In this document: one piece after another, positions 19,901 through 59,344 of the stretch
Position numbering within the stretch: the stretch's first letter is position 1
How the letters are laid out: each line of letters starts with the position of its first letter
From: Candidatus Omnitrophota bacterium
Lineage (GTDB): Bacteria; Omnitrophota; Gorgyraeia; JABMRG01
Assembly: GCA_042577545.1 (NCBI GenBank)
Contig: JBHPDT010000002.1
Coordinates: 1,574-65,573, forward strand
Direction: 5' to 3'
Length of the DNA stretch: 64,000 bases
The notes under the pieces: model-generated
What the model was told of the DNA's origin: nothing
Seen by the model: only the letters and a program-made list of their open reading frames with translations
The model's database searches: none
Position numbers and translations under genes: made by a program

Positions 19901-21534
19901 ATGGAGTCTATGGCAGGGTTGGTCACCTGGGCGAATAGCTGTTTAAAATAGCTATAGAGAATCTGGGGCTTTTTTGATAAAAAGGCATGGGGTATATCAC
20001 TGCCCATTGAGCCCACAGGCTCTTTGCCTTCCTGCGCCATCGGCTTGATAATCATATTAAGGTCTTCGCGCGAGTAACCAAAGGCCTTGAGAAGAGAGGT
20101 AATATCCTCAGATCTCTTATTGGCGCCTGCTGCGCTGATAAGCTTATCCAGGTCGACAATGTTCTTCTCATTCCATTCTCCGTATGGATAGCGGGCAGAT
20201 GCCCCCTTTTTTATCTCACTGTCTTCTATTATGCCTCCTGATTCGGTATCGATTAAAAAGATCTTGCCAGGTTCAAGCCTCCCGGAAATCTTGATATTTG
20301 CGGGATCTATATCAAGAACGCCAACCTCAGAGGCCATAACCACAAAATCGTCCTTAGTCACAATGTAGCGAGCCGGACGCAGACCGTTTCTGTCAAGTAC
20401 CGCACCAATATTCTTTCCGTCAGTAAAAGCTATAGCAGCTGGTCCATCCCACGGCTCCATGAAACAGGCGTGATATTTGTAAAAATCCTTGAGCTCTTTG
20501 CTCATAAAACTATTATGCTCCCAAGCCGCTGGAATAAGCATCATCATAGCGTGCTCAATTGATCTGCCGGATAAGACCAGAAGCTCTAAGACGTTATCAA
20601 TGACAGCTGAATCACTTCCTCCTTCAACAATAACAGGTTTTAGCTTTTCCATGTCTGTGCCAAATACTTCGCTTGTCATTATGCGCTCTCTGGCCCGCAC
20701 CCAATTTACATTGCCGCGCAATGTATTTATCTCCCCGTTATGGGCAAGAAAACGAAAAGGTTGAGCAAGATCCCATGTGGGAAAGGTATTGGTGCTGTAC
20801 CGAGAATGGACCAGGCAAAGAGAGCTCTGGATAGATTCATCCTTTAGGTCAGGAAAAAACTCCCTCAGTTGAGAGGGCATCAAAAGTCCCTTATAACTCA
20901 ACGTCCTGCAAGAGAGGTTTGTAATATAGAAAAAATATCTCTGCTCTATGGAAGATGACTTAACGCAATTTTCAATCTGTTTGCGAATAATATAAAGCTT
21001 TCTCTCAAATTGCAGCGTGTCTTTTAAGCCCTTACTTCTGCCTATGAATATCTGGCATATATACGGCATCATATCCCGCGCACCCTTACCGATGACCAAA
21101 CTGTTCACAGGAACTTTGCGCAAGCCCAAAAACTGCTGGCCTTCTTCATTGACGACCTTTCTAAACAGGTCTATGCAAGAGTTTCTATCTCTGTCATCTT
21201 GTGGAAGAAAAACCAATCCGGTTCCGTAAGATCCAGATTCGGGCAAGGAGATGTCTGCTTCTTTGCATTCTTTCAGCAAAAACTCATGCGGCATCTGGAT
21301 CAGTATGCCAGCGCCGTCTCCTGTCTGTGGATCAACCCCAACAGCGCCACGATGGCTTAGGCGCTCAAGCACCTCTATGCCTTTCTTTACTATATCGTAG
21401 GATCGCTTTGCGTTTATATTACAGACAAACCCGACACCGCAGCTATCATGCTCAAACCGCGGATCGTATAATCCCTGTTTTGTAGGTAAATGTTTGTATC
21501 TCATTTTGTATTCGTCATTGTAGCCCCGTATCAA
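16951..21534 (-). CDS. gltB: Glutamate synthase large subunit (amidotransferase, FMN, and C-terminal GXGXG domains)
   Basis: CGVGFV amidotransferase N-terminus, FMN/3Fe-4S central domain and C-terminal glycine-rich domain. The track start at 21534 is a TTG; the first ATG is at 21504. Confidence 0.9.
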   Translation of the reverse strand: MIRGYNDEYKMRYKHLPTKQGLYDPRFEHDSCGVGFVCNINAKRSYDIVKKGIEVLERLSHRGAVGVDPQTGDGAGILIQMPHEFLLKECKEADISLPESGSYGTGLVFLPQDDRDRNSCIDLFRKVVNEEGQQFLGLRKVPVNSLVIGKGARDMMPYICQIFIGRSKGLKDTLQFERKLYIIRKQIENCVKSSSIEQRYFFYITNLSCRTLSYKGLLMPSQLREFFPDLKDESIQSSLCLVHSRYSTNTFPTWDLAQPFRFLAHNGEINTLRGNVNWVRARERIMTSEVFGTDMEKLKPVIVEGGSDSAVIDNVLELLVLSGRSIEHAMMMLIPAAWEHNSFMSKELKDFYKYHACFMEPWDGPAAIAFTDGKNIGAVLDRNGLRPARYIVTKDDFVVMASEVGVLDIDPANIKISGRLEPGKIFLIDTESGGIIEDSEIKKGASARYPYGEWNEKNIVDLDKLISAAGANKRSEDITSLLKAFGYSREDLNMIIKPMAQEGKEPVGSMGSDIPHAFLSKKPQILYSYFKQLFAQVTNPAIDSIRERLVMSLESFIGPEKNILEETPEHSHKLRVRNPILTDEELEKIRDISINGFKTKTIYTFFDSQNGKEGFSRALERICFEAEYAIEQGYSFVILSDRGVDKDNIALPALLATSAVHQHLVRKTIRSEVAIIVESAEPREVHHFALLFGYGAGCVNPYLAHETIEYLIENKEIHLDLKSALKNFNKAIGDGILKILSKMGISTLRSYRGAQIFEALGLDDELIGRCFTGTISRIGGVSLEGIADETIKRHAKAYPEREGGTTCLTSGGVYQWKKDGEFHLWNPESIAALQDCARNNDYDRYREFSQMINDQSANPTTLRSLLRFKDVGDLPGKRQTISINEVEPVEDIMKRFATGAMSFGSISSPAHETIAIAMNRIGGKSNTGEGGEDPSRFIKLPNGDSRRSAIKQVASGRFGVTINYLVNADEIQIKIAQGAKPGEGGQLPGHKVSEIIARTRYTTQGVTLISPPPHHDIYSIEDLAQLIFDLKNANPQARVSVKLVSEAGVGTVAAGVAKGHADMILISGGDGGTGASPRSSIRYAGLPWELGLSETHQTLMLNNLRSRVRIQADGQMRTGRDIAIAALLGAEEYGFCTSVLITIGCVMLRHCHLNNCSIGVATQDKILQKRFKGRPEYIVNYFHFVAQELREIMASLGMRNINDMIGRTDLLEANSDIIPLKAKGIDYSKILYKPDLPEDVRRYCVSAQKNKLDSVFDKKLIGMCEAALNENKPTNISVEINNTNRTTGAMLSGEISRRCGDGVLLEDTICTKFRGIAGQSFGAFLAKGVTFELEGMANDYVGKGISGGKIIIYPDKKASYKPDENIIIGNTTFYGAISGEAYIRGIAGERFCIRNSGLYAVVEGLGDHGCEYMTGGRVIVLGKTGRNFAAGMSGGIAYVYDEGSAFKDRCNMDMVELEEAKEEDKDTIYHLLHNHFKYTQSEKARRIIDNMYEELKKFVKVIPIEYKRILEGIKVEEKLNLVEASDG

Positions 21535-21636
21535 ATTTTGCTTATTTTTGGTACTGCTTATAAATTTGGTTCGGGGGCTTGCCCCGTATCAAATTTTGCT
21601 TATTTTTGGTACTGCTTATAAATTTGGTTCGGGGTC
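21524..21636. repeat. Tandem duplication (2 x ~57 bp) of a P-family hairpin element CCCCGTATCAAATTTTGCT...TAAATTTGGTTCGGGG
   Basis: Two near-identical units read directly. The first unit overlaps the gltB start codon region. Confidence 0.7.
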
Positions 21637-21868
21637 ATCCTTTAAATCTTCCTACATTAATATGGAGTCGCCTTATCTTAGTATGCAGTGTATTTCGATT
21701 TATACCGAGAACCCTGGCCGCAATTATCTGATTGCCGCATGAATGTTGTAGCGCCTTCTCAATAAGCTCTTTTTCGACGTGTTCGATTACTTTAGCATAT
21801 ATCCGACCTCTGTTCAATGTAAAAAAAGTATCATCTATAAAGCTGTTATTTTCTGAAATCATTGTCAA
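21635..21868 (-). CDS. Stand-alone Fis-family HTH DNA-binding protein (NtrC C-terminal-type HTH_8)
   Basis: C-terminal GNQIIAARVLGINRNTLHTKIRRLHI closely matches the Fis/NtrC HTH (GNQ...AA..LGI.R.TL..K). It is 77 aa with no AAA+ domain. Confidence 0.55.
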   Translation of the reverse strand: MTMISENNSFIDDTFFTLNRGRIYAKVIEHVEKELIEKALQHSCGNQIIAARVLGINRNTLHTKIRRLHINVGRFKG

Positions 21869-21957
21869 ACTCCAGATCGCTCTGATTAAAAAACTGAGAG
21901 ATTGTTCCAGGTCCTTCGATTGATATATGTTTTATAATGAGTATCATGGCATAGAAA

Positions 21958-22122
21958 GTAACCAGTAGATTTGAGTAACCAGAAACCTGTAACCAGTAAC
22001 CAGAAGATTCCGTATATCAGGAAGAATCGATCTGGTTTCTGGCAACTGGTTTCTGGTAACTCATGTATAAGAGCATGTTGTCAGATTGATCTGGTTTCTG
22101 GTAACTGGTTTCTGGTTACTTT
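21958..22122. repeat. W-family palindromic repeats (GTAACCAGAAACC / GGTTTCTGGTTAC), multiple units
   Basis: Read directly from the sequence. The same motif family occurs at 59256..59338. Confidence 0.6.
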
Positions 22123-22123
22123 G

Positions 22124-26421: not shown

Positions 26422-26934
26422 TTAATCTTGGTAACCCTTCTTCCAGCGATTAATGATAGATTTTTTATACTTTACGATCATAACATGTGATACACCTAGC
26501 TCCTTTGCCGCATCACGAGCTGTATAACCTTTTAATAGTAGTACTAGTACTTTCTTCTCTTTAGCGGTAAAGCCATTAGACATGATCTTCTCAAAGGTAA
26601 GACCCCTGTCAGCAACCCTATCGATATCCTCAGAATCACACACAAGGGTCTCGCCAAGGGTATATCCATAATCTCCAATAGGCAACTCTGTGCTCATGAG
26701 AATAGCTTTGTCTTTCTTCACACGAATATAGTTTAGGATATGGAATTCACAGCTCTTAGCAGCATAGGATTCATTCATATCCTCAGGTAGACCATCCTTA
26801 AAGCGCTCCCAAAGGTGAATGCACATCTCCTGATATATATCATCCTCATTAGCTAAGGCGCAGCGATTACCATATATCTTGGCGATCTTTCGCAATCTCG
26901 TATCTAGTCTTTTAAATAATTCGTTAAAGTTCAT
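26422..26934 (-). CDS. Sigma-70 family (ECF-like) sigma factor or sigma-like regulator
   Basis: Region-2-like N-terminus (DIYQEMCIHLWERF) and a region-4 HTH (LTAKEKKVLVLLLKGYTARDAAKELGVSHVMIVKYKKSI). Confidence 0.55.
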   Translation of the reverse strand: MNFNELFKRLDTRLRKIAKIYGNRCALANEDDIYQEMCIHLWERFKDGLPEDMNESYAAKSCEFHILNYIRVKKDKAILMSTELPIGDYGYTLGETLVCDSEDIDRVADRGLTFEKIMSNGFTAKEKKVLVLLLKGYTARDAAKELGVSHVMIVKYKKSIINRWKKGYQD

Positions 26935-27167: not shown

Positions 27168-27239
27168 TAATTCGCACTTATAACTTATGTCCACTTTGTG
27201 TGACATAAGTTATGTGCTCATTAAAAAAGACGCCCCGCT
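27166..27239. repeat. R-family repeat, copy R4
   Basis: GGTTAATTCGCACTTATAACTTATGTCCACTTTGTGTGACATAAGTTATGTGCTCATTAAAAAA. Confidence 0.65.
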
Positions 27240-27290
27240 CCGGACGCCTCATTGCTTTAGCACATACATTGTGCTTTTACCTTCAGCATA

Positions 27291-27318
27291 AGTATACCAT
27301 ATAATCCCGATTTGTCAA
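27291..27318 (-). promoter_or_regulatory. Sigma-70-type promoter TTGACA-16-TATACT, minus strand, reading toward the sigma-like gene
   Basis: Hexamers read directly. It lies immediately downstream of direct-repeat copy DR-left. Confidence 0.5.
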
Positions 27319-27327
27319 CCTCTTTTT

Positions 27328-27395
27328 CAGGGGTTCAGGGGACAGGGTTCAGGGGACAGAAAATTTACGCTAACCTCACCTCGTCATTGAGGAGG
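27328..27395. repeat. Direct repeat DR-left: (CAGGGGT)n followed by AAATTTACGCTAACCTCACCTCGTCAT
   Basis: Matches DR-right at 37611..37664 at about 85 percent identity. Confidence 0.7.
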
Positions 27396-27477
27396 CCGCA
27401 GGCCGACGTGGCAATCTCCATCCTGATATAGGCTACACCTTGATCAAAGGACAGGGATTGCTTCGCCCCTCACTTTC

Positions 27478-27513
27478 CGCCTATGGCGAGATCTCGCCGC
27501 CTTCGGCGGCGGA
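27478..27513. repeat. GC-rich nested-hairpin motif, copy B (CCGCCTATGGCGAGATCTCGCCGCCTTCGGCGGCGG)
   Basis: Shares GGCGAGATCTCGCC and its flanks with 12104..12139. Lies ~45 nt downstream of the giant ORF stop. Confidence 0.5.
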
Positions 27514-27556
27514 CGTTCGTGGCCCGCAATGACGGTAGTGTTATCTATATCAATTC

Positions 27557-36500: not shown

Positions 36501-37501
36501 AACCGTCCCCCTGGGACTAATAACTCTTTAACCAGCTCAAAGACTCTCTCCAGGTTTTCTCGATCTAGATAATGGAGACTTAAACGAGCATAAACTACAT
36601 CAAACTTTTCTTTTTGAGATTGAGCGATCTTTGGAAGAATCTCTAGCATGTCTCCCCAATAAGGAGTAATACCTGAATGTTTCGAAACTATATCTTTTGC
36701 TTTGGTTTTCTTCTCGATTGCTGTAACATTGCACCCTTGACTAGCAAAATATATCTCATCTCCAAAATCTCCTGAACCAAGGCTAAGTATCTTAACATCT
36801 TTTGGATTACCGAGATCACTTATAACTCTGTGAGCCAATTCATTTGGTTGAGCTCCTGCTGATGAAGATTTCGCAACAACTTTCCAAGGATTTAACATAT
36901 CCTCCCACTCATTAGGCGGAACTAATTCGTAACCATCATCAGACACTGGAACGATTTTAGCGACAACATACTTTGGATGAGTTGAACCGGGAAAATAGAC
37001 TTTATCCATATAGAGTTGTACGGGCTTATCTTCTTTGCCTTTAAATACCTTATCCCAGTTTTTAATATCTATATGGCCGCGCCTTAATGCAACCCTTGGT
37101 ATTACTCCTAATCCCCCTAAACCAAGCCTATACTGCTCTTTTATGCGATAGCGTTCATAATCGCTTCTATGCATAAAAACAAAATAATCTATACCATAAA
37201 TACCATCCTGATGTAATTTAACCATTGCAGCTCTAGCTGCCTCAATATATGGAAATACGCCACAATCAACTTCCTCTATTTTGTCCGCATATTCAGGCTT
37301 CGGGTGCTCTCCTCCAGTAAACCCAAATGCAACTGCATCAGGGCCACCACCCTGAGGACCTTGAACTGACTTTGCCATTGCTGGTGGGCGCAGGGTATTA
37401 ACAGTAGGCTTTGGATAGACCCCTGCGGATTGGTTTGCAAGAAGCGAAACCACTAGTATAAGCTTTAGTTTATGCAATAGATATCTCATAATAGTATTCA
37501 T
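27557..37501 (-). CDS. Giant 3314-aa multidomain protein. Domain order, N- to C-terminus:
1. Signal peptide or TM anchor.
2. Unknown N-terminal domain.
3. Class I SAM methyltransferase.
4. NTase-like module 1.
5. Basic linker.
6. Eighteen 31-aa helical repeats.
7. Helical domain.
8. Radical SAM domain.
9. NTase-like module 2.
10. IMPase/CysQ-like phosphatase.
11. NTase-like module 3.
12. NTase-like module 4.
   Basis: Single uninterrupted ORF. MTase motifs ILSLGSGDFGDE and LVPGGRFYFVV. Radical SAM motifs CNLNCRSC (CxxxCxxC) and IFTGDGEPLL. IMPase motifs VLDPIDGSDQF and WFDGARVAASG. Four repeated modules carry VGSSRYLFEEDGWCLLEPDHDFDLLF (a GS...DxD pattern). K-x-SSAG recurs at each domain boundary. 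Confidence 0.8.
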   Translation of the reverse strand: MNTIMRYLLHKLKLILVVSLLANQSAGVYPKPTVNTLRPPAMAKSVQGPQGGGPDAVAFGFTGGEHPKPEYADKIEEVDCGVFPYIEAARAAMVKLHQDGIYGIDYFVFMHRSDYERYRIKEQYRLGLGGLGVIPRVALRRGHIDIKNWDKVFKGKEDKPVQLYMDKVYFPGSTHPKYVVAKIVPVSDDGYELVPPNEWEDMLNPWKVVAKSSSAGAQPNELAHRVISDLGNPKDVKILSLGSGDFGDEIYFASQGCNVTAIEKKTKAKDIVSKHSGITPYWGDMLEILPKIAQSQKEKFDVVYARLSLHYLDRENLERVFELVKELLVPGGRFYFVVKSQKDPHYRRSVDQESIIEDPDTWLLTYVNPQLKELADAGDATVKPDVTRQFFDEVRVRHYTDKAKLQIETCELKSEQLKVAQKTGVTDAQASKILEVSVTKALLSRVDFNSIKVDVGGLLRDGKINIALFEKLLNDIIRLYLGKKFPDKNYDVRVQIVVSSRYLFQENGWCILDPDHDIDLLFMAKGPERSSYKERVLLTIEVVHFVSAICDYLDQSSWGTLLAKDINYTGIGFLLEEDGEGGSRWHYRILRNLILCRYESSDNFKIAKVYIQMLYYFGQRSTYMNYKDRYLQVRNDEAALSRLVADLKGDEEVSELLEKVLSADPGNDFNGLLDIMKTNVPWLLEGLDSPEDGLVGEKASSAGDIGADTILEYRQLLNEEGRARKGGMQSVQRTKTTSSVQLRRMGGPSLRSSGTAEPYPSGTIGAVAIAEIRQLLNSVDGKRVRRKHITPRVEAILLTVKRGEMSLFAEKQAAKIARLKKLPDKLDMLIFLSNVKEKKKAYCFKGSHIALILQSSREQNEIEKIIASLKKFGIKGTHIASILKSSREQDEIEKLIVSLKKLGITEGAHITPILQSSRKQDKIEKLIASLKNQGIREGAHIALILQSSRKQDEIEKLITFLKAQDIREDAHIARILQSSRKQDEIEKLIAYLKNQDIREITHIARILQSSREEDEIEKLIVSLKKLGITEGAHITPILQSSRKQDEIEKLIAYLKNQDIREGAHIALILQSSRKQDEIEKLISSLKDIGIREAAHIAPILHSSRKQNEIEKLIAYLKNQGIREGAIASILQSSRKQDEIEKIIPSLKNQGIREGTHIARILQSSRKQDEIEKLIVSLKKLGIREVAHMVPILQSSRKQDEIEELIVSIRAHGIREGIHIALILQSARKQHEIEKLITTLKDLGVAEGYHIAIILSSSRKQSEIKKLITSLKDLGIREGYHIALILNSSRKQDEIETLIASLDKLGITEGTYIALILQSSRKQGEIEELIASLKIHGIREGAHIAPILNSSRKQDEIEKLIASLKKLGITEGTHIALILHSSRKQNEIEEYSAKLLDLRASHKDFAVSNKDIVRFIINIDAMRQGFDSMLEYKLGLPESKKKLSDNEKDYVRFRMLLRNVPSRVLYSLLDIYITDPKRREELRKQIGLKIEEDKQSLKSILKRLSDNAQADWQDEDYDDLGYLLFSLDEKIRSAVADKLVAAHFKELSNRFPKDDEQSAAMETLMYVGAHFNIYRNQLRDTYPAASFRAYLYTSLRYVKIKLYYKNQPESLNGLRHEIEAFCIPYKDIFGRLPSNHEITVEFIRRGWLQEAIEMVLGINNIISLDAFSARKKETWDEHLVVRKPIDAIGAMPASVFTAELAGKPSSAGLDFSSIEVDVDGVTPAKAKERLKEIMLSSNIEVSSLPRSEAVICLAGYCNLNCRSCLGDSRKLPEDASMIDHSRCPSHDKTENIIRFLNETDIDSLIFTGDGEPLLNDATLDTLCEIIARTKACTVSIWTNCLWALDKKRAEYVLNRIKSAIEGRDRKNRIKSFYITASVDEFHAPNIAGVANLINIFVKNQERLIDLDEINQGLHLQTVLWKNTRKTYEALNAQMCAEQDFFAEFDLKPIDKILEMDPEKWRSQTRQTEHLSLNIDKDRRIEIPVGFLTLVYIGRAQQQISIDERFAVRIYDHSEGDDTVGLSRHPLLPEMLCLKTYIHHDGKVFLKLFNMNMDKANALSEGTICIPFEELERREAINPIIAAFRKRGPNYMRAHLRDIDPELVENFNKYELPEINIVRLIQDDGLYVLLSIRIIKDLYWDRLTDSARQEIESLERAVEEHRAKPSSAGLDFSSIEVDVDKMLRDGKVNIALLEELLSDIARLYLHTEMPDSAADIKVQIVGSSRYLFEENGWCLLEYYYDFDLLFLSKTTEAWFLPECVSAIHDYLNQSGWGASLSRRIDSADVRFVLEQYNEIDLYNHFDFIRNMIQCRYSSSDNDEAIKTHLQMLYYFGERMTYTEYKGRYLRNHHDASELSKLVADLRRNKEAAELLRRVLSADADNDYNGLLDIMKTNAPWLLKGLNLPAEDREAEKASSAGRADSAEPKWLANQPCKNIIWEGLRSGEIVEPELREIKEAVRGKIIEVGKHLRENHAEMIEADEKLDGSPVTKGDLYSQANLLPIFMEHIKRTRLVFEEKIGDPSLALAVGEQNENFSVSAWTTVLDPIDGSDQFKSLGQDVGYGTEWSRIWMIGFALYYKGVPVMTIGYSPEYDIEGAPKIEDMPGSLFEAMLFDEATTLNGMALQVASIDDLKSARIALETVRRKDSRDRGWPWIQPNWREELASYINMDNVGEDMQSTWFDGARVAASGTFSSLKFPHLLVFGGQKAVDAGAHYFIAKAGGICLNHKGEEAFPILPEVLSDPSGLTESFVSGHPSAVYAWLDAYRKSISKPSSAGLDFSSIEVEPKELIKDGKINIALFEKLLSDIAMLYVKKEIPKSGAEVSVKVVGSSRYLFEYDGWCLLEPKHDIEIFFVVKNSKRVDLSQIWVDLSAAIDGYFSQPEWEAYFTPFIEFANIMGDRFSEKDVLVFHLVAIQDFLKCYNNLELDATDKNIIKIVKNYIQLLYYFGTTEQRKKYEDYRKKFFHAWGKPSQMWELAHKMRRDPYIKQLSGRVLNSSLDDSHYDSLLRQMKINAPWLVQGLGLPDEAAAAPKASSAGLDFNSIEVDPEALIKDGKINITLFEKLLSDIVRLYMTEMASTGNFDIRPQIVGSSRYLFEEDGWCLLEPDHDFDLLFIVKTPEKLGQTEETALTQQMIQSMVTIREYLDQSGWGAFLIESIEYAGVRILSEQYSERDILRIHFHTARNIIEHRYDSRHSDKAIKAYLQMLYYFGRHTTYTRYRRRYLQVYDDAKGLSRLVADMRRNREVKELLEKVKNACLDNDFNGLLDTMKTNAPWLVEYLDLPEEGAAVAVTQTVESRLPLAEHAELRKAYQAISAAA
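33345..35010. repeat. In-frame 93-bp (31-codon) tandem repeat array of about 18 units inside the giant ORF
   Basis: Protein units read HIA.ILQSSRKQDEIEKLI.SLK..GIREGA. The DNA periodicity is visible directly. Confidence 0.8.
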
Positions 37502-37564
37502 AATAGGATAATATGGCGATTATTGCCAGGGAGGAATTACTTAAACCTTTTTAAATGCTGTTAT

Positions 37565-37593
37565 ATTATACTAAATCTTATAGGTAGTGTCAA
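37565..37593 (-). promoter_or_regulatory. Perfect consensus sigma-70 promoter TTGACA-17-TATAAT driving the giant ORF
   Basis: Minus-strand -35 at 37593..37588 and -10 at 37570..37565. The ORF start at 37501 is about 57 nt downstream of the predicted TSS. Confidence 0.55.
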
Positions 37594-37610
37594 GATATAA
37601 TTGGGGAAAA

Positions 37611-37664
37611 ACAGGGATCAGGGGTCAGGGGTCAGGAAATTTACGTTAACCTCACCACGTCATC
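37611..37664. repeat. Direct repeat DR-right: (CAGGGGT)n followed by AAATTTACGTTAACCTCACCACGTCAT
   Basis: Matches DR-left. It sits at the same position, immediately upstream of the -35 hexamer, as DR-left does relative to the promoter at 27291..27318. Confidence 0.7.
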
Positions 37665-37701
37665 TATGAAAAAGCATGTCAAGAATAAACACTTCTCCCA
37701 T

Positions 37702-37725
37702 ATGCAAAATGTGAGTATTTTGCAT
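37702..37725. promoter_or_regulatory. Perfect 9-bp inverted repeat ATGCAAAAT-N6-ATTTTGCAT (operator-like) upstream of the giant ORF promoter, in the IS-proximal region
   Basis: Read directly from the sequence. Confidence 0.35.
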
Positions 37726-37991
37726 GCTTCCTCCCTATATAAGTTATCACCAACGAGCTTAACAGCTCTTTGCTCACCACTTCTATCTTCTAAAGATTAC
37801 TATATTGTGAAATATTGACAAACGGTCAATTTTCAGTCATCTATTCGTGCTCTCAAGGAGCATAGTAATTTCTGATTTAAACGAGGGCGTGTCAACCATT
37901 GCGTTGGACCTTTAAAAGGTCAATGACGTTTGGACCTCATCCCTCTTCTCGAGAAAACAGAAAAATGTGATGATCTTCATTTTGCGCTGTT

Positions 37992-39044
37992 TTACTCGAT
38001 TATACCGTTTGCTACCATCTCTGGTTTAAATTTCACATTATTCTTCCATAAGATCAAGCTTATTGCCGCGATCTTACGGCTAACCGCGTTTCTGGCGTTT
38101 TTATGGCCAGTACCACTCATTCTTAAATGATCATAGTATTGCCTGAATACATTATCACCCTTAAGAGCTGACTGCGCGGCCATCTTATATACGCATTTTA
38201 GTGTTCTGTTACCCCATATTTTCTTATCACCATAATTTCTGTCTCCGCTAGTCTGTCTATGCCTGACTAATCCGCAATAACTGAAGTATTTATGTTTATT
38301 TTGAAACCTCCCTGGATCGATTACTTGTGCCACTATCTTTGATGCCTGGATATCCTTTATCCCTGGCAATGTCATTAAAAGCCTGATTTCCTTGAACTTC
38401 TTGCCGTACTTTTTTATTTCAGGGATATATTCTTGCCTGCATTTTTCCATCTCTTTAAGTAGATGGTGCATATGCTTTCCAATGAATTGAAAATCTTCCC
38501 GACCCAATCCTCCCAATAAGCTTTCATCGTTATACACTTTTTGCCCTAGAGCTCTTTTACCTTCCTTACGAAACAATGACTTATATCTGTTTTTCATTCT
38601 GCTGGAATCTTCTACGAGATCTTGATAACCACTCATAAGATCCCTAAACTTCTCACGCTTGGATCCATCGTGATATACAGGTGTTAGAAAATTACCCCTT
38701 AATAAGTTTGCCAATTGCCTGGCATCAAGCTTATCGGTCTTGGCTTTTTTATAACTTTTGTTCTCTACAGGGTTACAAACTAACAATTCACAATCCTCTT
38801 TTTTAAACATCTCATACAACCAACTGCTTAACTCACATTCCTCGAAGGTTAATTTCTTATTACCGGATATGTTGCGCACATATTCTCTTAATAACCTCCC
38901 ATTGGTTGCGATCTTTACATTATCATAGACTTTTCCGTGTTCATCCATCACACAAAAAGAACATGTTGACGAATGGGCATCTAATCCTATATACTTATTC
39001 ATGGAACCTCCTTTCAAGGTTAATGGTACGTTTGTGTTTATCAC
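37992..39044 (-). CDS. IS110-family transposase
   Basis: N-terminal YIGLDAHSSTC... DEDD-type domain. The C-terminal LMTLPGIKDIQASKIVAQVIDPGRFQNKHKYFSYCGLVRHRQTSGDRNYGDKKIWGNRTLKCVYKMAAQSALK matches the IS116/IS110/IS902 C-terminal domain. Confidence 0.7.
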   Translation of the reverse strand: MINTNVPLTLKGGSMNKYIGLDAHSSTCSFCVMDEHGKVYDNVKIATNGRLLREYVRNISGNKKLTFEECELSSWLYEMFKKEDCELLVCNPVENKSYKKAKTDKLDARQLANLLRGNFLTPVYHDGSKREKFRDLMSGYQDLVEDSSRMKNRYKSLFRKEGKRALGQKVYNDESLLGGLGREDFQFIGKHMHHLLKEMEKCRQEYIPEIKKYGKKFKEIRLLMTLPGIKDIQASKIVAQVIDPGRFQNKHKYFSYCGLVRHRQTSGDRNYGDKKIWGNRTLKCVYKMAAQSALKGDNVFRQYYDHLRMSGTGHKNARNAVSRKIAAISLILWKNNVKFKPEMVANGIIE

Positions 39045-39237
39045 AACAATTATACCATTTGATCCTCGAGATCACAAAAGGTCTTAGCCATAAAGGCTAC
39101 TCTTATGACCTCCTCGGAAGGGAGGTTCTTTTTCATGTTACCATTGCGAAGAGGCCATTGAAACCATGTTTGCCGACGAAGCAATCTCAAAGACAGAGAT
39201 TGCCACGCTCGCCTTCGGCTCGCTCGCAATGGTAACA

Positions 39238-39452
39238 TGCAAGATTCAGTGGCAGCTTTTGGCTAAGAATTTTTTTTGAAGTGCGAGGCACCTCAGGGAT
39301 TTTTCAATGCCACTAAAGGAAGGCGAAATGTTTCAGTGGCAGTTTTTGGATAAGAATTCTTCTGAAAAGTGAGGTTCGGTGGCAGTTTTTGGACAAGAAT
39401 TTTTTTGAAATGCGAGGCACCTCAGAGATTTTTCCAGCACTAAGGCAAAGCG
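39238..39452. repeat. Tandem repeat of ~85-bp units (about 2.5 copies), unit TCAGTGGCAGTTTTTGG.TAAGAATT...GAGGCACCTCAG.GATTTTTC...GCGAAATG
   Basis: Read directly. Located between the rpoD 3' end and the IS110 transposase. Confidence 0.65.
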
Positions 39453-44889: not shown

Positions 44890-45033
44890 CGCATATAATT
44901 TTGGTTGCGGGACAAGGCCACAGCCCCGTAACAAATTTTGCTCGCATGGGTTCTGACCTTAAATTTGGTTCTGGGCCACAGCCCCGTAACAAATTTTGCT
45001 CGCATGGGTTCTGACCTTAAATTTGGTTCGGGG
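44890..45033. repeat. Tandem P-family elements (2 x ~58 bp plus a partial unit): CCACAGCCCCGTAACAAATTTTGCTCGCATGGGTTCTGACCTTAAATTTGGTTC.GGG
   Basis: Read directly. The repeat generates the spurious overlapping ORFs 44717..44992 and 44883..45074, which share the identical translation EPNLRSEPMRAKFVTGLWP. Confidence 0.7.
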
Positions 45034-45082
45034 TGCTCATCACTTGGTTCAGCGTCATTCATATTATTAGACACTATAAAAA

Positions 45083-58687: not shown

Positions 58688-58766
58688 TGTAAACCTCGTT
58701 TTTTTGTTATTTTATTTGCAATTTGCCATATGCTATTTGCAATTTACCCTACTTTTATATCCTTTC

Positions 58767-58857
58767 AATGAGGTCACAACTTATGGAACGAAGTGACGTA
58801 AGTTGTATGACCGAATTGATCCCCCCTGCTTTGATTTTGAAAAAATCAAGGGGGGAT
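58767..58857. repeat. R-family composite repeat in reverse orientation (copy R6) between rplU and rpmA
   Basis: ACAACTTATGGAACGAAGTGACGTAAGTTGT hairpin plus the palindrome ATCCCCCCTGCTTTGATTTTGAAAAAATCAAGGGGGGAT. Both are also found in R1 at 10546..10640. Confidence 0.6.
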
Positions 58858-59169: not shown

Positions 59170-59255
59170 TTGATCTCACTCCTCTCATTAATTTTAAGTC
59201 CCTAAGTATATCATATATAGATATATATGGCAAGGAAAAAAACACTTGAAAAATA

Positions 59256-59338
59256 AGTAACCAGTTGCCAGTTGCCAGAAACCAGAAAAAACGTGTATTT
59301 AAACTAATCTGGTTACTGGTTACAGGTTTCTGGTTACT
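59256..59338. repeat. W-family palindromic repeats (GGTTTCTGGTTAC) upstream of rplU
   Basis: Same motif as 21958..22122. Confidence 0.6.
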
Positions 59339-59344
59339 TAGTAT

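Follow-up and report, generated by a model that had tools for sequence, protein, structure and literature searches.

A 64,000-nt stretch of contig JBHPDT010000002.1 from a Candidatus Omnitrophota bacterium (hereafter, the window) carries two copies of a short direct repeat, one upstream of the predicted promoter of a giant 3314-aa open reading frame (ORF) and the other upstream of a promoter that, judging from the gene order downstream, heads a large nitrogen-assimilation cluster. With a probability of roughly one half, the repeat is an intergenic element specific to its lineage, whose effect would be structural at most; it is neither a duplicated promoter nor a demonstrated operator. Both copies lie in intergenic DNA that follows one transcription unit and precedes the promoter of the next. 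Among known classes, the repeat is placed with repetitive extragenic palindromic sequences/bacterial interspersed mosaic elements (REP/BIME) and with the short tandemly repeated repetitive (STRR) sequences, both of which it resembles in part.

In-window BLAST aligns positions 27387-27343 with 37663-37619 on the minus strand over 45 nt at 88.9% identity (E of about 1e-8). The repeat has three parts: (i) the TGACG tail of a REP-like palindrome of a widespread type, (ii) a unique 20-bp core, and (iii) a C-rich heptamer microsatellite, (CTGNCCC)n. The repeat-specific portion begins at (A/T)GGTGAGG, and the junction between REP tail and core is identical in both copies. The core, GGTGAGGTTA(G/A)CGTAAATTT, has 19/20 positions equal between the left copy (GGTGAGGTTAGCGTAAATTT, 27361..27380, minus strand) and the right copy (GGTGAGGTTAACGTAAATTT, 37637..37656, minus strand), which lie 42 and 43 nt, respectively, 5′ of a −35 hexamer; from core start to −10 hexamer, the distances at the two sites are 84 and 86 nt. 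The 20-mer GGTGAGGTTARCGTAAATTT occurs exactly twice in the 64 kb (27380-27361 and 37656-37637, both minus), where shuffled sequences predict 0.01 occurrences. A first-pass annotation, made from the sequence alone, had placed two direct repeats here, and both are confirmed; its figure of ~85 percent identity over 54 vs 68 nt is explained by the extra heptamer units of the left copy. The copies it outlined are real, but their extent has to be trimmed, in that the right copy as outlined starts inside an insertion sequence, whose final bases make up its positions 37664-37663, and the TGACG that follows the end of this insertion is a REP-like palindrome tail and not repeat-specific.

The public DNA collections searched (representative genomes and metagenome contigs) do not include the source metagenome-assembled genome, so the copy count applies to the 64-kb window. 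Within it, neither a search allowing up to 3 mismatches nor short-word BLAST finds further core copies. An inverted copy of the core is likewise absent from the window, which rules out a miniature inverted-repeat transposable element with an inverted partner. Across 185,579 species-representative genomes (596 Gb) and the JGI metagenomes, there are five core 20-mer matches, approximately the chance expectation for a 19-base pattern; two of them carry a few extra matching bases, and none has a heptamer array. The core is also absent from IMG/VR viral contigs and from all fetched loci.

The promoters lie outside the repeated sequence. The predicted giant-ORF promoter, TTGACA-17-TATAAT at 37565..37593 (minus strand), matches the consensus at 12/12 positions, while the predicted nitrogen-cluster leader promoter, TTGACA-16-TATACT at 27291..27318 (minus strand), matches at 11/12 and has an extended −10 TG. 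Both pair the TTGACA- and TATAAT-type hexamers of sigma-70 promoters at a spacing of 16-18 bp and are the top sigma-70 matches within 25-40 kb; in the whole window, they are two of the three intergenic minus-strand matches of at least 11/12, the third being a 12/12 site at 929. The near-perfect promoters of the first-pass annotation are thus upheld, as, roughly, is its placement of the repeats 10-20 bp upstream, the gaps from the repeat ends it gave to the −35 hexamers being 9 and 17 nt. Its central claim, a duplicated promoter module, does not hold. Both alignment and BLAST end the similarity at the heptamers, and no relation is seen in the 17-18 nt leading up to the −35 hexamers, in the spacers, in the flanks, or in the 5′ untranslated regions, so that only TTGACA and TATA(A/C)T coincide; homology through spacer, discriminator, and 5′ untranslated region, as expected of a duplicated module, is missing. 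The left promoter and its hairpin-plus-terminator leader are, moreover, kept in two orthologous loci (L003 and L004), where a TTGAC(A/G) −35 hexamer and a −10 hexamer are followed by a GCAC...GUGC-type hairpin and then by an intrinsic terminator. Neither locus has the repeat, which argues against duplication of the promoter module. Judged by these loci, the left promoter predates the repeat, which would have been added upstream of a pre-existing promoter. The repeat is also lacking at the 12/12 promoter at 929 and at a nitrogen-leader promoter near 5.9 kb.

The first part of the repeat belongs to palindromic units that are extragenic and imperfect, as REP sequences are. Both copies are preceded by a doublet consisting of an ATTGCG...GCAAT palindrome, a C(C/T)CTGTC(C)TTTGA linker, and a GAGATTGC...CGCAATGACG-type unit (both follow a GAGATTGC...CAATGACG unit and an ATTGCG...GCAAT unit). 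On the left, the ATTGCG...GCAAT palindrome (27457..27530, minus strand) lies between the giant ORF stop codon and the repeat, and the unit GAGATTGCC...CCTCAATGACG (27382..27418, minus strand), of the type targeted in five loci by the insertion sequence described below, contributes its TGACG tail as the 5′ end of the repeat. On the right, the doublet (39144..39230, minus strand) is composed of ATTGCG...GCAAT, the linker CTCTGTCTTTGA, and GATTGCTTCG...CTTCGCAA, and is parted from its TGACG tail (37662-37658) by a 1481-bp IS1111-type insertion sequence (37663..39143, minus strand). This insertion at CGCAA^TGACG, 6 bp 5′ of the right core, defines the 5′ edge of the right repeat copy.

The limits of the insertion sequence were drawn from an alignment of the window element with four related metagenome copies (L010-L013), whose transposases are 79-89% identical. 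All five copies, which are independent insertions, are inserted at C(T/C)CGCAA^TGA(C/T)(G/A), where a GAGATTGCTTCG...CGCAATGAC palindromic unit ends, and the flank beyond TGAC(G/A) is different in each of the five loci. TGACG therefore belongs to the REP-like unit, while the core is found only in this genome. The five-copy alignment also rules out the repeat as part of the insertion sequence or of its target. After in silico removal of the insertion sequence, an extension of the homology between the two sites was sought and rejected, as only generic REP motifs align. The likeness to REP/BIME repeats extends from imperfect palindromic units in intergenic gaps, arranged as doublets with a linker, to their use as IS110/IS1111 targets, given that the five-locus insertion occurs at a fixed position of the unit, CGCAA^TGACG. 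REP sequences are known targets of IS110/IS1111 elements, for example of ISPpu9 in the Pseudomonas putida REP (PMC12288879). The repeat differs from REP/BIME in that core and heptamers form an appendage to the palindrome that is itself non-palindromic, and in that no REP-associated tyrosine transposase (RAYT)-type gene is seen in the window.

The third part is a heptamer array that is about two units longer on the left, where it comprises 5 units (CTGTCCC CTGAACC CTGTCCC CTGAACC CCTGAAA, 27325..27359, minus strand), than on the right, where it comprises 3.5 (CTGACCC CTGACCC CTGATCC CTG, 37612..37635, minus strand). Both arrays contain at least three tandem 7-bp units, are intergenic, and recur in other genomes. 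They recall the STRR sequences of filamentous cyanobacteria, 7-bp repeats of intergenic and promoter regions whose function is unknown (PMC2670836). Shared features are tandem 7-bp intergenic units just upstream of promoters, several heptamer families per genome, and a unit number that varies between copies. The present arrays differ in host (Omnitrophota), in unit (CTGNCCC / CCCCTGA), in their shortness (3.5-5 units), in being joined to a unique core, and in that the array forms no hairpin. A second heptamer family in the window, CTGGTT(A/T) / CTGGTAA, builds long inverted arrays (hairpins) at 21955-22123 and 59250-59344, the former between a glnA stop codon and a fis-like gene and the latter between an RNase E/G gene and the rplU promoter; such CTGGTTN arrays are thus found upstream of the rplU and fis-like promoters.

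Outside this genome, the exact 18-mer CTGACCCCTGACCCCTGA of the right array is found in 116 IMG/VR contig stretches, frequently at several places on one contig, and none of the 116 joins the array to the core. In the IMG/VR loci collected (L014-L127), (CCCCTGA)n arrays are common in viral contigs that mostly appear to be high in GC, with up to 7 matches per stretch, and often adjoin other heptamer arrays or their own inverted copies. These arrays of viral contigs may represent a widespread, little-described class of intergenic microsatellite. On the plus strand, the tracts contain canonical G-quadruplex motifs (four runs of at least 3 G with loops of 1-7 nt, a sequence motif only) at 27330-27355 (left) and 37603-37631 (right). 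They are the only ones on either strand of the 64 kb, for which shuffles predict 0.35.

Several observations weigh against a neutral intergenic repeat. Conservation is higher in the core (19/20) than on its promoter side, the copies flank exactly one orphan gene, and the same core orientation with a nearly equal distance to the −35 hexamer is not predicted by such a repeat. Only two copies are visible within the 64-kb window.

Co-regulation of the two transcription units through a shared activator or repressor site, which the first-pass annotation had proposed, is less likely, because both promoters are of consensus type, control of the left unit appears to act after initiation through a terminated leader, and two of the three repeat parts are generic. 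In a broader version of this idea, the repeat is a shared cis-regulatory element whose core is bound by a protein and/or whose heptamer tract forms a G-quadruplex/i-motif at about −45 to −100 of both promoters. Although this is unlikely, it survives best among the alternatives and would link the giant gene in its expression to the sigma factor and the nitrogen-assimilation unit. It agrees with the shared orientation and the 42 vs 43 nt spacing, with a core that is nearly invariant while the stretch from heptamers to −35 is unrelated, with the coincidence of the only two canonical G-quadruplex motifs of the window with these tracts, and with the presence of an extracytoplasmic function (ECF)-type sigma factor in the left unit. 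The promoters, however, already score 12/12 and 11/12 plus TG. Consensus promoters are independent of activators, and repressors rarely act from −80. The G-quadruplex motif, moreover, is an automatic by-product of a generic microsatellite, the core lacks dyad symmetry, and the 7-bp heptamer period is out of phase with the DNA helix. Both the orthologous promoters and another nitrogen-cluster leader promoter in the window lack the element.

Inspection by eye gave no convincing match in the core to NtcA, TnrA/GlnR, NtrC, or sigma-54 sites or to the AAC...CGT pattern of ECF-type promoters. In the orthologous loci, no nitrogen-regulator box and no AAC...CGT pattern is conserved, and the absence of the latter also speaks against the cis-element. 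Class I activator sites and upstream (UP) elements are the nearest known counterparts, sharing a location upstream (about −44 to −111 relative to the inferred start) and the fixed orientation and spacing. They differ in that the promoter-nearest part of the repeat is C-rich and not A/T-rich, the promoters are already consensus, the repeat has neither a dyad nor helically phased repeats, and no binding protein is known. The A/T-rich tract at −40 to −60 that marks a UP element is not found; its place is taken by the C-rich heptamer array, and the A-rich run AAAAAGAGG that adjoins the left −35 hexamer lies outside the repeated sequence.

A bolder form of the regulatory idea, which would be quite improbable, treats the repeat as a portable REP tail-core-heptamer element, maintained at a constant distance ahead of strong promoters, that places its core about 80 nt upstream of the start site and couples the orphan, multi-enzyme giant gene to the ECF sigma/nitrogen unit. 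The coupling would then pass, with similarly poor odds, through the G-quadruplex-/i-motif-prone tract or a core-binding protein.

Equally doubtful is an integration scar, an option that the first-pass annotation had raised in the form of att-like scars around an inserted cassette. In this scheme, a circle of about 10.27 kb, containing the giant gene and its promoter, would have integrated by a single crossover in the REP-core-heptamer composite, either Campbell-type or site-specific, and one hybrid copy would have been left on each side. The direct repeats do enclose exactly one gene plus its promoter, and a search of 5.8 billion proteins gives no close homolog of that gene, whose third-position GC content (GC3, 0.329) is the lowest of 29 ORFs; the orthologous locus L003 has other genes upstream of its leader and no giant gene. 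At 46% identity, L003 is nevertheless too remote to stand in for an empty site, and overall GC content and codon usage are ordinary. The likeness to attL/attR, about 50-bp direct repeats enclosing a 10-kb segment with an orphan gene, ends there, as no integrase, tRNA target, other mobile-element genes, or known empty site accompany it. The giant ORF, the only gene between the repeats, has no integrase domain, so that no integrase or recombinase lies inside the segment, and no tRNA or tmRNA gene occurs in the window. The IS1111 element is outside the repeats and uses a different target site, the core is absent from viral contigs, and the equal spacing to two unrelated promoters is left unexplained.

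Least probable is a transcription insulator, in which REP-like hairpins and a C-rich, G-poor tract would form a Rho-loading (rut-like) site or roadblock that halts read-through from upstream (on the right, from rpoD and the insertion sequence; on the left, from the giant gene) ahead of the strong promoter that follows: the tract is indeed C-rich (C:G ratios of 16:8 and 18:4 in the two copies) and unstructured as RNA, terminator prediction places no intrinsic terminator in the interval from the giant ORF stop (27557) to the left promoter, and other repeats of this genome also fill gaps from gene end to promoter, but rpoD has its own terminator-like hairpin at 39569-39543, Rho-dependent release would fall within or past the downstream promoter, and the 20-bp core is given no role.

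For the lineage-specific intergenic repeat, the proposed history begins with the REP tail, core, and heptamers being copied together into another intergenic site, or with the composite constituting a REP-like subfamily. Heptamer number would then have been altered by slippage to the present 5 and 3.5 units. Any effect on expression would be structural and incidental, stemming from a C-rich, RNA-unstructured, G-quadruplex-/i-motif-prone tract at about −45 to −75, and regulation of the left unit would reside in its terminated leader instead. The repeat shows no RNA structure beyond that of shuffled sequence (folding z-scores of +0.4 and +0.7), no Rfam match at gathering thresholds or at E ≤10, and no credible conserved small ORF across it, only frame-inconsistent ORFs with TTG or GTG starts. 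Other intergenic repeat families of the same 64 kb occupy 2-5 sites each, usually in the space from the end of a gene to the promoter that follows.

The left promoter opens a short leader (27220..27290, minus strand) with a hairpin at 27275-27259 and an intrinsic terminator at 27250-27227. Pairing in the first hairpin is kept by two compensatory pairs in a three-sequence alignment of the window, L003, and L004, and a covariance model of the leader (R1) matches L003 5475-5546 (E of 1.6e-4), window 5857-5762 (E of 0.002), and window 26404-26334 (E of 0.057). From these features, we infer that the visible control of the left unit is the terminated leader, which would act after initiation. The leader is a recurring arrangement of promoter, hairpin, and intrinsic terminator that is found on the minus strand of the window at 27290-27220, 26412-26325, and 5885-5755 and in other loci at L003 4755-4836 and 5465-5550 and L004 55-136. 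The recurring leaders precede nitrogen-assimilation genes, namely the ECF sigma gene, glnB/amtB, and a gltD-like/gdh operon; their terminator stems are conserved in sequence (AGAGGCGUUC...GAACGUCUUUUUUU), and no Rfam family covers the leader.

Some of these leaders resemble ANTAR targets, which comprise a pair of hairpins whose hexaloops bear A at position 1 and G at position 4, and in which hairpin 2 overlaps the terminator stem (PMC8934654). Dual hexaloops of this type are clear in the leaders at window 5885-5755 and L003 4755-4836, with examples such as GAUAC[AAAGGC]GUAUC and GGAC[AAAGAC]GUUC and a second hairpin that overlaps the terminator. The left leader itself fits the pattern in part, with a 7-nt loop (AAUGUAU) in hairpin 1 and only 2 bp in hairpin 2, GC[AAUGAG]GC. 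L003 carries a GAF-ANTAR gene right beside its leader, but the window yielded no ANTAR gene.

The nitrogen-assimilation cluster begins with a gene (26422..26934, minus strand) for a 170-aa ECF-type sigma factor, which scores 43.8 bits against TIGR02937 (cutoff of 42.9); this supports the "sigma-like" label of the first-pass annotation. The left promoter does lie upstream of this gene, as had been noted, but at a distance of 384 nt and not directly adjacent, with the hairpin, the intrinsic terminator, and about 290 nt of other repeats in between. Only two non-self homologs of the sigma factor were found (L003 and L004, 43-46% identity), both in nitrogen-assimilation clusters. The sigma-like, giant, and transposase proteins of the window are each 100% identical to NCBI MFC1806825-MFC1806827. 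A second copy of the insertion sequence (MFC1807767) is present on a 16-kb contig.

In the direction of transcription, the gene order is dnaG, rpoD, a repeat-rich gap, the IS110-family transposase gene, the right repeat, its promoter, the 3314-aa ORF, REP-like palindromes, the left repeat, its promoter, the terminated leader, two repeat elements, and the ECF-type sigma gene, followed by Gcw_chp, amtB, glnB, and glnA and, further on, by gltB, two gltD-like genes, a second glnA, and gdh. All larger annotated genes are on the minus strand, and a gap at 12.1-12.9 kb may hold one small plus-strand gene, possibly pilin-like, near 12.3-12.7 kb (by eye). The nitrogen-assimilation cluster spans about 27 kb of one strand (window 1-27000), includes a porin-like Gcw_chp gene and a small fis-like helix-turn-helix gene, and is interrupted by unrelated genes, such as one resembling pyruvate phosphate dikinase (PPDK) and a glycosyltransferase-methyltransferase fusion.

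The giant ORF (27557..37501, minus strand) is the sole gene between the two repeats and a near-orphan. The only non-self match of its product is P0005, a 3536-aa protein, with 40% identity over 7% of the length. The protein contains an S-adenosylmethionine (SAM)-methyltransferase domain at aa 238-336 and a weak inositol-monophosphatase-like match, and a CX3CX2C motif (CNLNCRSC) suggests a putative radical-SAM module. A 93-nt period at 33245-34936 corresponds to about 17 tandem repeats of 31 aa, and a module of about 250 aa (KPSSAGLDFSSIEVD...) is present four or five times. No Shine-Dalgarno sequence precedes either candidate start codon. Upstream of the gene for P0005 (L008 5800-6000), a promoter-like site is followed by a roughly 120-nt leader and by an intrinsic terminator, GGCCAGACTGCC...GGCGGTCTGGTTTTTTT; no such terminated leader precedes the giant gene of the window.

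The neighboring insertion sequence, in contrast to the repeat, has the features of the IS1111 family, which are a DEDD transposase, a long non-coding region downstream, and subterminal inverted repeats that are extended by 7 bp on the left and by 3 bp on the right (PMC11187229). Its transposase gene (39002-37992) matches Pfam DEDD_Tnp_IS110 and Transposase_20. The ends read TGGTAAC + ATGAAAAAG ... CTTTTTCAT + AGA, with 7-bp and 3-bp terminal extensions and subterminal inverted repeats (ATGAAAAAG / CTTTTTCAT) of 9 bp, below the usual 11-13. The 327-nt 3′ non-coding region has a conserved predicted fold in the five-copy consensus and contains two guide-like segments, ACGTCAT (37929-37923) and then CGCAATGG (37903-37896), that are complementary to the two strands of the target CGCAA^TGACG. 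In the seekRNA of IS1111 elements, the complement of the top strand comes ahead of the match to the bottom strand (PMC11187229). The non-coding region is thus like a seekRNA or bridge RNA, and its predicted guides match the REP-like target. The element also has an internal promoter, TTGTGA-17-TATAAT, and a right-end/left-end junction in L011 represents a circle or a tandem copy.

Further dispersed repeats fill the intergenic gaps of the window. Family X is a hairpin repeat of about 65 nt with the form AATGAG-[long stem]-CGAATT(A/T)A(T/C)CC, located on the minus strand at 10645-10565, 27234-27155, 27064-26985, and 26256-26180, on the plus strand at 58755-58835, and at L008 5490-5570, the last on the contig with the distantly related giant gene. 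Two copies lie between the left leader terminator and the sigma gene. The majority of copies come immediately after the T-run of an intrinsic terminator, compensatory changes affect 8/19 pairs, and the family may be REP-like or may be a mobile element with terminators as its target. Family Y is a 58-nt tandemly repeated hairpin unit, CCCCGAACCAAATTT...AAATTTGATACGGGG, at three intergenic sites (21523-21640, 44916-45040, and 27165-27115), one of them directly upstream of a promoter near 44.8 kb. A repeat of 43-87 nt, TTCAGTGGCAGTTTTTGG...TGCGAGGCACCTCAGGGATTTTTC, is present three times at 39245-39434 on the minus strand, in the gap that separates the REP doublet from the rpoD terminator.

In repeat-rich genomes of uncultured bacteria, a short repeat beside two consensus promoters is easily mistaken for shared regulation, and the present case counsels caution. 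The by-products of the analysis may outweigh the repeat itself, as they include an IS1111-type element with predicted seekRNA guides that match its target and an ANTAR-like leader before nitrogen-assimilation genes. Should the core prove to be a cis-element, it would offer a first handle on the control of giant genes in Omnitrophota.

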